Source: an uncultured Bacilli bacterium
Lineage (GTDB): Bacteria; Bacillota_I; Bacilli_A; RF39; UBA660
DNA: 64,000 nucleotides
Reading direction: 5' to 3'
NCBI GenBank assembly: GCA_947626275.1
Contig: CANQRL010000004.1
Location: forward strand, 10,370 to 74,369
Shown here: positions 26,858-30,162 of the stretch, one piece after another
Numbering within the stretch: position 1 is the stretch's first letter
Layout of the letters: each line of letters starts with the position of its first letter
Program-made: the position numbers and the translations under genes
The notes under the pieces: model-generated
Told to the model about the DNA's origin: nothing
Seen by the model: only the letters and a program-made list of their open reading frames with translations
The model's database searches: none

Positions 26858-28087
26858 TTATTCCTGTTCAAAAATACCCATATAGTATTTCTTTTTTCCT
26901 TTCCGAACAACGAGGACTTTACCATCAATCGCCATACTTTTCTCAATCATCATTGCTTCTTCTGTTACTTTTTCCCCATTGATAGAAATAGAACCAGCTG
27001 CTAAAAATTCTCTAGCCTCTCTTCGACTACTCGCAATGCCATTTTCGACTAACATATCAATTAAAGTCATTGGTTTCACTTGAAAGTTTGGCACATCTTT
27101 TAACCCATCTTCAATTTCTTCTAAAGACAATTCTTTGATATTTCCACTAAAGAGCACTTCACTAATATGAAGGGCTTTTTCATACTCTTCTTCACCGTGA
27201 AGGAACGTGATAACTTCATGCGCAAGAGCTTTTTGAGCAATTCTTTCCTCTGGCTTTTCTTGATGTCTTTTTTCAATCTCTTCAATCTCTTCCTTCGTTA
27301 AAAAAGTCAATTTCTTTAAGTAGTCGATAACGCATAAATCACTAGAATTAATTAAGTATTGATAAAGTTCATAACTAGATGTTTTTTCCTTATCTAGCCA
27401 TAGAGCATTTCCTTCTGTCTTTCCAAATTTAACACCATTAGCATCTAAAACAAGTGGCATCGTCATACCGAAGAGTTCCACATCTTTCATCTTTCTAGCA
27501 AGCTCAATACCAGTCGTGATATTTCCCCACTGATCAGAACCAGCCACTTGAAGAGTAACGCCTTTATCCTCATATAGATGGACAAAATCCATTCCCTGCA
27601 ATAACGTATAGGCAAATTCACAGAACGTAATTCCAGAATCCAATCTTCTACTAATGATATCTTTATCTAACATGTAATTAACGTTAATATATTTTCCGTA
27701 ATCCCTTAAAAAGTCAAGAATGGTAATATCTTTTGTCCAATCGTAGTTATTCACTACTTCAAAGCCAAAGATTTTTTCGGCTTGTCGAGTAAGTCCTTCC
27801 ACATTTTTTAAAACCGCTTCTTTGGAAATCATTTGACGCTCTTGACTAGGTTTTGGATCACCAATTAATCCCGTTGCACCTCCAACTAAAAGAATAGGAT
27901 GGTGTCCATAACGCGCTAACCGAGTCGCGATTAAGAAAGAAGAAAAGTGTCCGATATGCATCGAATCGGCTGTTGGATCTGTTCCAATATAAAAAGTTAA
28001 TTTTTCTTCATTTAATTTTTTTTCTAACTCTGGCGAACTGATATCTTTAATAAGTCCACGCCATTTTAAATCTTCCACTAATGTCAT
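26858..28087 (-). CDS. tyrS: tyrosine--tRNA ligase
   Basis: HIGH motif (SMHIGHF), KMSKS-like KFGKTEG, C-terminal S4 domain; 10-nt gap to upstream gene (operon-internal). Confidence 0.9.
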   Translation of the reverse strand: MTLVEDLKWRGLIKDISSPELEKKLNEEKLTFYIGTDPTADSMHIGHFSSFLIATRLARYGHHPILLVGGATGLIGDPKPSQERQMISKEAVLKNVEGLTRQAEKIFGFEVVNNYDWTKDITILDFLRDYGKYINVNYMLDKDIISRRLDSGITFCEFAYTLLQGMDFVHLYEDKGVTLQVAGSDQWGNITTGIELARKMKDVELFGMTMPLVLDANGVKFGKTEGNALWLDKEKTSSYELYQYLINSSDLCVIDYLKKLTFLTKEEIEEIEKRHQEKPEERIAQKALAHEVITFLHGEEEYEKALHISEVLFSGNIKELSLEEIEDGLKDVPNFQVKPMTLIDMLVENGIASSRREAREFLAAGSISINGEKVTEEAMMIEKSMAIDGKVLVVRKGKKKYYMGIFEQE

Positions 28088-28097
28088 AATATTCCTC

Positions 28098-28610
28098 CTA
28101 ATAATTACTATTTAACCTCGCTAAAGTAATCTCCTGCTTTTTCGAAATCGCTTCTAAGATTTCCTCTTCTTCAAAATGAAATAACTCTCCTAAATAAAGA
28201 AGATTTGTCAAAATATCTTTTATTACATCTTCTTTTAATTCTTCTAATAATTCTGTTCCCTTTTGATAGAGATGATTGATAACTTCATAAACATTCTCAC
28301 TATCGATGCGACGGGAAAGTTCTAATGGCATCTGTAAGAGATGATAGAAAAGTAAGGTCATCGTAATACAATCCGCGAATTCCTCTAATTCTTTTTCTCT
28401 ATCTGGTGATTTAACCGTCCAGTACTTGAAGCATTTAGTCTCATTTACAAACTCCCCTATTTCCACTAACAGTTCAATAACGTTTTTTTGGTGATAATCG
28501 GGGGTTGTTGCATACCTCTTTATAAAAACATCATCTAACGATTGGTTTGTCTCGTAGATAGTCTGCCATTTTTCACGCATCATGAGAACACTCTCCATGG
28601 CAATCATCAC
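28098..28610 (-). CDS. all-alpha NTP pyrophosphohydrolase-like protein (dimeric dUTPase/MazG-like), putative
   Basis: 170-aa ORF; acidic helix motifs ELLVEIGEF / EELKEDV; start uncertain (Met10/11 at about 28583 reduces overlap with deoC); family assignment tentative. Confidence 0.35.
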   Translation of the reverse strand: MMIAMESVLMMREKWQTIYETNQSLDDVFIKRYATTPDYHQKNVIELLVEIGEFVNETKCFKYWTVKSPDREKELEEFADCITMTLLFYHLLQMPLELSRRIDSENVYEVINHLYQKGTELLEELKEDVIKDILTNLLYLGELFHFEEEEILEAISKKQEITLARLNSNY

Positions 28611-29262
28611 AGTGACACTCTTCTACTGTCATCAATTTCACACCACTACTCGTTCCTAGTCTCGTAGCCCCTGCTTCAATCATCGCTTCTGCCGTTTCGA
28701 TATCTCGAATGCCCCCACTGGCTTTAATTTCCAAAACTTCATTTTTATGGTCATGAATGAGTTTTACATCTTCTACTTTGGCTCCCCCATCTCCAAAACC
28801 AGTGGAAGTTTTAATGAAATTGACAAATGTCTCATTACAAATTTCTGTCATCTTGACAATTTCCTTATCCGTTAGATAACAAGTCTCGATAATGACTTTT
28901 AAAACATGACCATCAATCGCATCACGAATTTCTTCAATCTCTTCTTTGACATAATCATAATCTTTGTTTTTTAAAGCGCTTAAATTGATAACCATATCAA
29001 TCTCAGTAGCGCCTGCCTCTATCGCATTAATGGCTTCAAAAACTTTCGTATCACGAGTATTCGCTCCCAATGGAAAACCTACTACCGTCCCTACTTCTAC
29101 ATTGCTTCCCTTCAATAGTTCATGGGCAAGAGGAACGTAATAAGGGTGTACACAGACAGAAGCAAAGTGATATTTCTTAGCTTCCTCACATAATGTTTCA
29201 ATATCTCTCATCGTCGCCGTTGGTTTTAAATTGGTGTGATCAATATAACTATTTAATTCCAT
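28573..29262 (-). CDS. deoC: deoxyribose-phosphate aldolase with Cys/His-rich C-terminal tail
   Basis: IDHTNLKPTAT, VGTVVGFPLGANT, KTSTGF, IKASGGIR (Schiff-base Lys); unusual tail EECHCDDCHGECSHDA. Confidence 0.85.
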   Translation of the reverse strand: MELNSYIDHTNLKPTATMRDIETLCEEAKKYHFASVCVHPYYVPLAHELLKGSNVEVGTVVGFPLGANTRDTKVFEAINAIEAGATEIDMVINLSALKNKDYDYVKEEIEEIRDAIDGHVLKVIIETCYLTDKEIVKMTEICNETFVNFIKTSTGFGDGGAKVEDVKLIHDHKNEVLEIKASGGIRDIETAEAMIEAGATRLGTSSGVKLMTVEECHCDDCHGECSHDA

Positions 29263-29271
29263 AAAATCCTC

Positions 29272-29907
29272 CTATAATTTTTCTCTTATTTCTTTCCAAG
29301 AAAGAATTCTATCGTAGGGTTCTTCCCCGTATTGATTCTTATAATCGTATAAAAGCGTCTTCATTCCTAACTCATGAGCACCCTTCATGTCTATCTCTGG
29401 TAAATCCCCTATCATGATGCACTCCATAGGCTCTACATCTTTTACCATACAGCGAAAAGCTTCAACAGATGGCTTAACAGGATTGATATCTCCGCCAATA
29501 ATCTCTTTAAAATAAGAAGCAATCCCTACTCGTTCCAACCGTTCTTTTTGCTCTTTCGTAAACCAATTCGTTAGAACAAAAAGATCATACTTCTGCGCTA
29601 GATAATCTAATGCTTCCCTCAAATCCTCATCGATGGGTTTCACCCATTTGCTAGTAGACTTTATGATGTCGACAACAAATTCTTTGGAATACTTAGGGTC
29701 TTTTTGATAGAAATATTGATAGAGTTCATCCATACGAAAGTACGTCGTTATTTTCTCAAAATCACCAATCGTACGATATACTTCCCGAGCACCTTCTTCA
29801 GATGCCTCATACCCATACCTTTTTAAGACATCTTGATAAGTTTGTAGGTACATAGGATCATGCATAAGCAATGTGTTATCAACATCAAAGATTACTTTCT
29901 TTATCAT
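29272..29907 (-). CDS. HAD-superfamily hydrolase (phosphatase/nucleotidase-like)
   Basis: motif I FDVDNTL; motif IV GDLPEIDMKGA; start ATG 29905-29907 with AGGAGG. Confidence 0.7.
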   Translation of the reverse strand: MIKKVIFDVDNTLLMHDPMYLQTYQDVLKRYGYEASEEGAREVYRTIGDFEKITTYFRMDELYQYFYQKDPKYSKEFVVDIIKSTSKWVKPIDEDLREALDYLAQKYDLFVLTNWFTKEQKERLERVGIASYFKEIIGGDINPVKPSVEAFRCMVKDVEPMECIMIGDLPEIDMKGAHELGMKTLLYDYKNQYGEEPYDRILSWKEIREKL

Positions 29908-30122
29908 AGTTCCTCCTAACAAAAAAATATTATGAGATTAGGAACGAGTTTCCCCGCGGTACCATCCTATTTCATAATATTTTATGCTCTTTTATCTTAA
30001 CGCGATTGACGATTTGACTCCAAATAGGTAATTCATCTTAAAACATTGTTTAGTTTTCATCATCCACTAAATTTCTCTTTACCCGTTTTAAAACTACTAA
30101 TATTCTTCTCCATCAATTAAAC
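29908..30122 (-). promoter_or_regulatory. T-box riboswitch leader (specifier possibly UAC, Tyr) controlling HAD-deoC-NTPase-tyrS operon
   Basis: minus-strand AATAGGATGGTACCGCGG (T-box consensus AGGGUGGNACCGCG, one mismatch) at 29955-29969, embedded in long imperfect terminator stem (AAUAUUAUGAAAUAGGA ... UCCUAAUCUCAUAAUAUU) followed by U7; Stem-I-like GAUGGAGAAGAA 5' element; UAC in candidate internal loop about 93 nt from TSS. Confidence 0.6.
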
Positions 30123-30128
30123 TATCAA

Positions 30129-30158
30129 CATTATACCATAATGATTTGGAAAGTCAAC
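30129..30158 (-). promoter_or_regulatory. sigma-A promoter (extended -10) for T-box operon
   Basis: minus strand TTGACT-N16-(TGg)TATAAT. Confidence 0.55.
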
Positions 30159-30162
30159 CATT

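Follow-up and report, generated by a model that had tools for sequence, protein, structure and literature searches.

The operon and its leader

A 64-kb window of DNA from an uncultured Bacilli bacterium (GenBank assembly GCA_947626275.1, contig CANQRL010000004.1, positions 10,370 to 74,369) carries a compact four-gene unit that ends in tyrS, the gene for tyrosine--tRNA ligase, and begins with a T-box leader. Coordinates below are positions in this window, and all operon and leader elements lie on the minus strand. The first gene encodes a HAD-IA family phosphatase of 211 aa (29907-29272; PF13419), whose start is ATG 29907 behind an AGGAGG ribosome-binding site (29917-29912), not TTG 29922. Its product shows weak similarity to pyrimidine 5′-nucleotidases, and a sequence search of solved structures returned generic HAD matches only. 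Next comes deoC (29262-28573), encoding deoxyribose-phosphate aldolase (DERA); a score of 278 bits on the deoC equivalog TIGR00126 (cut-off 117) excludes an aldolase of the aromatic pathway that shares its Pfam family. The third gene (28583-28098; PF08761, E 5e-20) encodes a nucleoside triphosphate (NTP) pyrophosphatase of the all-alpha dimeric-dUTPase family (dUTPase_2). It likely starts at ATG 28583 behind GGAGAG, with an 11-nt overlap with the end of deoC, and a sequence search of structures found no solved relatives of the protein. The unit closes with tyrS (28087-26858; TIGR00234, 361 bits) and an intrinsic terminator, AAAAGCUCAUUAUUGAGCUUUUUUU, at 26859-26835. An original prediction, made from the bare sequence, had named the same HAD, deoC, dUTPase-like and tyrS genes, and the Pfam and NCBIfam matches bear it out.

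The gene junctions are tight, at +9, about -11 and +10 nt. As originally claimed, the 10-nt gap between the dUTPase_2 stop codon and the tyrS ATG leaves no place for a leader of its own; it contains a ribosome-binding site. In a scan for U runs with hairpins, just two places gave convincing terminators, the leader and the region following tyrS, and consensus, U-run and RF00230 scans found no separate leader, strong promoter or terminator ahead of tyrS. The tyrS start codon lies ∼1.8 kb downstream of the leader's end, within a unit of 3.3 kb: the original prediction was right to place the leader three genes upstream but too generous in putting the distance at ∼3 kb.

Transcription of the leader is predicted to start near 30122, from a sigma-70-type promoter at 30157-30130 found by consensus scan (TTGACT at 30157-30152, 16 nt, then the extended -10 element TGgTATAAT at 30138-30130). 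Eleven of its 12 hexamer positions match the consensus and the TG is also there, in keeping with the strong extended -10 promoter first described. Taken as a class, promoter-like sites are no more frequent in the region than in shuffles (14 seen, 13.8 expected), so the leader promoter counts as a consensus match and no more. Downstream of it, the Rfam covariance model RF00230 matches 30119-29937, from Stem I through the antiterminator 3′ strand, at 81.1 bits (permissive scan; E 6.1e-18 in a local search, 5.6e-16 over the whole window). The match is statistically significant (E 6e-18), although it lies under the curated gathering score of 93, and a default Rfam scan of the window at gathering thresholds reported zero RNA matches, the T-box leader included. 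The alignment spans the model end to end save for a deletion of positions 105-133, which correspond to Stem II, and this deletion accounts for the low score; the space between Stem I and the F-box hairpin, where Stem II would be, amounts to ∼11 nt. Glycine T-boxes have no Stem II either, and it is not a strictly defining part of the class. The permissive scan found no second T-box anywhere in the window.

A single-sequence fold of the whole leader was uninformative (z = -0.66), and the structural evidence comes from comparison. When the T-box structure was projected from the Rfam alignment onto 43 full-length leaders from related genomes, 86.6% of cells were paired, against 38-52% in slid-partner controls. 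Both sides of the pair change at 29 of the 35 T-box pairs, and none of 500 shuffles reached the observed values. Covariation backs Stem I, Stem III and the antiterminator helices A1 and A2. With its specifier loop, its distal platform, its T-box bulge between A1 and A2, and the purines flanking Stem III, the leader is a real T-box.

In this clade T-boxes reach 50-81 bits, short of the Rfam cut-off of 93, and routine annotation would therefore overlook them throughout a group of gut bacteria with reduced genomes. The window offers a parallel case in a tRNA-Ser gene (54855-54946), which ARAGORN and the permissive scan reported and which is absent from the gathering-threshold Rfam output.

Stem I, the specifier and the F-box

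Stem I (30113-30017), proposed at first as a set of Stem-I-like elements, aligns to RF00230 and covaries. It comprises a GA-motif base, a specifier loop with AGUA (30098-30095) facing GAA (30034-30032), an AGAGA bulge within 30080-30072 and a distal loop, GGAUGAUGAAA, at 30065-30055; in the alignment, the bulge and the distal loop both fit the model consensus. Across the 43 leaders the distal helix shows 99.6% pairing, with both-sided changes at five of six pairs. The Stem I distal platform, in which the AG bulge and the distal loop serve the tRNA elbow, is intact in the window leader.

The specifier codon lies at 30030-30028, in the context GAA-U-UAC-C and at about +93 from the predicted start, as the original prediction had suggested for a UAC triplet in the specifier loop. 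Each base of UAC is conserved at 90% or more both among 16 and among 43 aligned orthologous leaders, the exceptions being alignment shifts, and UAC stands as the conserved triplet across more than 60 orthologous leaders in all. The one or two bases before UAC vary among these leaders, as does the spacing. UAC also ends one base ahead of the point where the helix resumes, which is the usual rule. Because UAC is conserved while its flanking bases and the alternative triplet in the loop vary, the specifier is the Tyr codon UAC. The window holds no tRNA-Tyr gene.

A short hairpin of the Stem IIA type follows (30009-29994), recognized by conservation and both-sided changes and carrying the F-box GCGUUAA in its loop, near 30003-29997. 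CGUUA is invariant in the 16-leader alignment. Like the window leader, its relatives have no Stem II and retain this hairpin. The hairpin pairs (helices 5-6) vary on both sides and are 56-73% paired, in a region where the MAFFT alignment is imperfect. In three related leaders (L040, L050 and L061), an upstream CG becomes GG or AG as the F-box becomes GCCAUA or GCUUUA; these parallel changes hint at a pseudoknot pairing.

A terminator nested around the antiterminator

As riboswitches, T-boxes belong to the textbook classes, and they are a target for antibiotics; their switch is described as an antiterminator and a terminator competing for the same strand. In the canonical arrangement, the 3′ strands of A1 and A2 turn into the 5′ strand of the terminator (PMC7583486), and the T-box bulge ends up as linker sequence, over 20 nt away from Stem III (PMC5570125).

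The 3′ domain of the window leader is arranged differently. Stem III (29986-29973) pairs CAUAA with UUAUG and is flanked by purines, the full stretch reading AAGAG-CAUAAAAUAUUAUG-AA (29991-29971). In an alignment of 49 leaders, four of its five pairs show both-sided changes, and its flanks fit the RRRxG-Stem III-AA motif of PMC7583486. The antiterminator (29968-29940), supported by alignment, folding and covariation, begins with the T-box sequence AGGAUGGUACCGCG (29968-29955) and consists of A1 (AGGA/UCCU) and A2 (GCGGG/CUCGU) on either side of a 7-nt bulge, UGGUACC (29964-29958), which is invariant in the clade leaders. A1 is 99.5% and A2 93.3% paired, with compensatory changes. Folding and covariation place around these helices an intrinsic terminator at 29981-29921, made up of a hairpin (29981-29926) and a U7 run (29927-29921). 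The claim of a near-consensus T-box sequence inside a terminator stem with seven U residues is thereby confirmed; this nesting had been seen in the original prediction, and its departure from the textbook switch had gone unremarked.

In folds of the 3′ domain, the U-proximal helix of the terminator joins AAUAUUAUGA (29981-29972) to UCAUAAUAUU (29935-29926). The upstream strand of this helix is built from the 3′ strand of Stem III together with its loop and a single linker A, and A1, the UGGUACC bulge and A2 all remain paired within the terminator hairpin. The terminator 5′ strand is thus not drawn from the 3′ strands of A1 and A2, and the canonical class I exclusion of the antiterminator does not apply. 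The lower terminator stem has 10 pairs, seven of them with both-sided changes, and is 90.5% paired in the 49 leaders. It shares the columns of one strand with Stem III, and the two pairings are mutually exclusive. Two conserved pairings that exclude one another are the signature expected of a switch. By folding, the nested terminator, as the OFF state, is worth -15.9 kcal/mol (minimum free energy -19.6), and Stem III with A1 and A2, as the ON state, -9.3 kcal/mol.

The nested design recurs in 53 of 67 clade leaders when each is folded and classified. The same procedure was applied to 103 generic metagenomic T-boxes, picked by the core AGGGUGGUACCGCG with a matching A2/A1 3′ strand and hence biased to one core. 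It classed 65 of them as canonical, seven as using the A2 5′ strand and 14 as mixed; 15 had no U run, and the two called nested both look like miscalled U runs. Literature searches returned no account of a nested terminator or of terminators that use Stem III, which is absence of evidence only. A second T-box in a related genome (L064, 1504-1699), with GAA-CUU-A at the specifier position and thus a Leu reading, also carries a nested-type terminator, so the design is not confined to tyrS leaders.

Another means of control that was considered is sequestration, in which the A1 3′ strand would mask the ribosome-binding site (GUUCCU with AGGAAC). It was dropped as the generic complementarity of a ribosome-binding site to CCU-rich sequence. 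The hairpin does not include the site, and the leader has its U7 terminator.

Relatives and operon layouts

A search with TyrS yielded 80 loci, one per species-level genome, all from uncultured gut Bacilli. The genomes are labelled Bacilli, Tenericutes, Mycoplasma or Erysipelotrichaceae, and include Clostridium sp. CAG:710. With a profile built from 14 leaders, 65 of the 80 loci proved to have the same leader ahead of tyrS. It lies directly before tyrS, at 12-54 nt, in 28 loci, which identifies it as a tyrS leader. Elsewhere the slot between leader and tyrS holds deoC only (11 loci), deoC and dUTPase_2 (five), HAD and deoC (12), HAD, deoC and a DUF1016 nuclease (one), HAD only (two), a CYTH-domain protein (two) or an unknown ORF (one), and two loci are unclear. 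The full set of HAD, deoC and dUTPase_2 occurs in one locus besides the window. Overall, deoC separates leader and tyrS, with or without HAD or dUTPase_2, in 30 of the 80 genomes. Even the closest relative (L001, TyrS 96% identical) has deoC alone in this position.

A HAD-Ham1-deoC-MFS cluster with its own promoter sits just upstream of a leader that abuts tyrS in L023. This cluster and the varied layouts indicate that the extra genes form a variable module neighbouring tyrS. Other genes in or beside the slot (L023:1428-4419, L060:5459-6004, L066:3813-4358 and L073:4800-5822) encode Ham1, an inosine triphosphatase (ITPase), with an MFS transporter, CYTH-domain proteins and a DUF1016/YhcG nuclease; most of these other proteins are enzymes that hydrolyse nucleotides or phosphates. 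Judged by gene families and layouts, the phosphatase, the house-cleaning NTP pyrophosphatase and DERA are a variable module by tyrS that has repeatedly come to lie behind its leader. The three extra genes are a module for nucleotide clean-up and deoxyribose catabolism.

The original prediction had called this operon composition unusual. That is fair, as literature searches found no paper linking a T-box to deoC or deoxyribose-phosphate aldolase; the composition is nonetheless conserved across the clade and not a one-off. A tyrS leader followed by DeoC, the HAD phosphatase and the dUTPase-like protein, or in relatives by CYTH or Ham1, would extend a T-box regulon beyond amino-acid genes, and the coupling of these enzymes to tRNA-Tyr charging may be genomic hitch-hiking.

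Thirteen related tyrS leaders (L033, L063, L072, L038, L022, L071, L020, L059, L024, L032, L053, L057 and L029) have an ultrashort Stem I. In L033 (5840-5958), 7 nt stand in place of 74 Rfam model positions, and UAC is displayed in a 9-nt terminal loop, AUUUACGAC. These leaders end in a hairpin and a U run and appear, from that arrangement, to be transcriptional. The distal platform has been called essential in transcriptional T-boxes (PMC7583486).

Two ORFs border the operon. Just upstream of the leader lies an ORF of 729 aa (32352-30163, minus strand) with no Pfam family and a weak FliL-like match at its N-terminus. It is fast-evolving, with 64% identity in L001 against 96% for TyrS, and no terminator lies between it and the T-box promoter. 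Downstream of tyrS, an ORF of 258 aa (26803-26027, minus strand) matches no Pfam or NCBIfam family and occurs in only some relatives (37% identity in L005). Its promoter-like site (26847-26819; 10/12 with TG) overlaps the tyrS terminator.

A proposed switch and its alternatives

We consider it probable that a T-box with a UAC specifier and a contested Stem III gates a single HAD-deoC-dUTPase_2-tyrS transcript in response to tRNA-Tyr. The dependence on tRNA, the role of Stem III as decision element and the co-transcription of the four genes are predictions that we infer from the features above. Once transcription has begun near 30122, Stem I would offer UAC to the GUA anticodon of tRNA-Tyr, while the distal platform would grip the tRNA elbow. 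The uncharged 3′ ACCA end would pair with UGGU of the bulge; the discriminator A73 of tRNA-Tyr presumably matches the U. Next, Stem III and its purine flanks would stack against proximal A1 and close as a latch on the duplex of tRNA and bulge. In other T-boxes, Stem III and the purines are needed for binding of the tRNA 3′ end, and Stem III stacks on proximal A1 (PMC7583486, PMC5570125). A latched Stem III would be shielded from invasion by 29935-29926, no hairpin would abut the U run, and transcription would read through into the operon. With charged tRNA or none, the weak, AU-rich Stem III would be displaced: pairing of 29935-29926 with 29981-29972 would lengthen A1 downward into the long terminating hairpin, and transcription would stop at 29927-29921. 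Unlike in the textbook switch, A1 and A2 would not be competed for.

Several points weigh against this proposal. The OFF hairpin still contains A1, A2 and the bulge, and tRNA binding need not obviously block termination; the Stem III lock itself is inferred by analogy with structures of other T-boxes. The terminator classes come from minimum-free-energy folds and the covariation from MAFFT alignments, and the terminator stem beside the U run contains a single G-C pair. The leader is without Stem II and under the Rfam gathering threshold. After UAC the window has C, a minor departure from the usual purine, which is A in most relatives, and with no tRNA-Tyr gene in the window the match of the discriminator base is presumed. 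Lastly, a weak internal promoter could escape consensus scans.

The persistence of A1, A2 and the bulge in both states is also what an opposing account would build on. The long hairpin might be a constitutive attenuator, or it might be regulated in some other way, as by a bound tRNA that distorts the hairpin or blocks it physically, with Stem III playing no role. Transfer RNA could in principle bind the OFF hairpin, and Stem III alone is worth only -1.4 kcal/mol by folding. Stem III nevertheless covaries despite its varying sequence and shares a strand with the terminator stem, the pattern that two competing structures produce; its purine flanks match the published motif (PMC7583486), and the invariance of the tRNA-contact residues speaks against a relic. 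We regard this account as unlikely.

A second possibility separates the T-box from its presumed target: it would govern the first gene or genes only, and tyrS would be driven by its own promoter within upstream coding sequence. Weak promoters do escape consensus scans, and a 9/12 match with TG lies upstream of dUTPase_2 (28632-28603). This site is no better than the shuffled background already given for the region (14 against 13.8 expected), the gap before tyrS is filled by a ribosome-binding site only, the window holds no other T-box, and in 28 relatives the same leader abuts tyrS, with a Tyr codon in the aligned leaders. An independent tyrS promoter is thus quite improbable.

That the leader senses tRNA-Leu through UUA, the triplet right after GAA, is scarcely credible: some T-boxes do have their codon directly after GAA, the non-tyrS leader in L064 reads GAA-CUU-A, and the discriminator U would suit tRNA-Leu too, but the triplet varies in orthologues (UUA, AUA, GUU, AAU), whereas UAC, one or two bases further on, is conserved and stops one base before the helix resumes, as usual, and the gene controlled is always tyrS.

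If the contested Stem III is indeed the switch, its docking, and not formation of the antiterminator, would be the step that is read out. A broader proposal, for which we see roughly even chances, is that the clade shares a T-box platform in which the antiterminator is never unfolded, competition between Stem III (stabilized by uncharged tRNA) and a downstream strand decides, an ultrashort Stem I is tolerated in some members and a nucleotide/deoxyribose module comes under tRNA-Tyr control. A conserved variant with a lasting antiterminator and a contested Stem III would allow a recent structural claim, in which Stem III with its purines forms the latch that senses charging, to be tested independently.

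Comparison with known T-boxes

The Bacillus subtilis tyrS leader (RF00230) is the founding member of the T-box class. It has in common with the window leader the tyrS target, the UAC specifier, the Stem I distal platform, a probable F-box, Stem III, the UGGUACC bulge flanked by A1 and A2, and an intrinsic terminator ending in a U run. The window leader differs in having no Stem II, in drawing its terminator 5′ strand from the Stem III 3′ strand rather than from the 3′ strands of A1 and A2, and in the three genes unrelated to amino acids that stand between it and tyrS. The glyQS T-box of Bacillus and Geobacillus is likewise transcriptional and without Stem II, and has Stem III and purines in its discriminator. 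It also lacks the IIA/B element, whereas the window leader keeps its F-box hairpin. The glyQS terminator is of the canonical competing kind, in which the former bulge serves as linker at a distance of over 20 nt from Stem III (PMC5570125), while the bulge of the window leader stays in the hairpin. The translational T-boxes of actinobacterial ileS, with their ultrashort Stem I, are resembled by the 13 relatives that display UAC in a terminal loop (e.g. L033). Those relatives differ in ending with a hairpin and a U run, and the window leader has a Stem I of full length. Set beside these systems, a T-box assigned to Tyr is nothing out of the ordinary; what stands out is the conserved nested terminator and the nucleotide-metabolism cargo.

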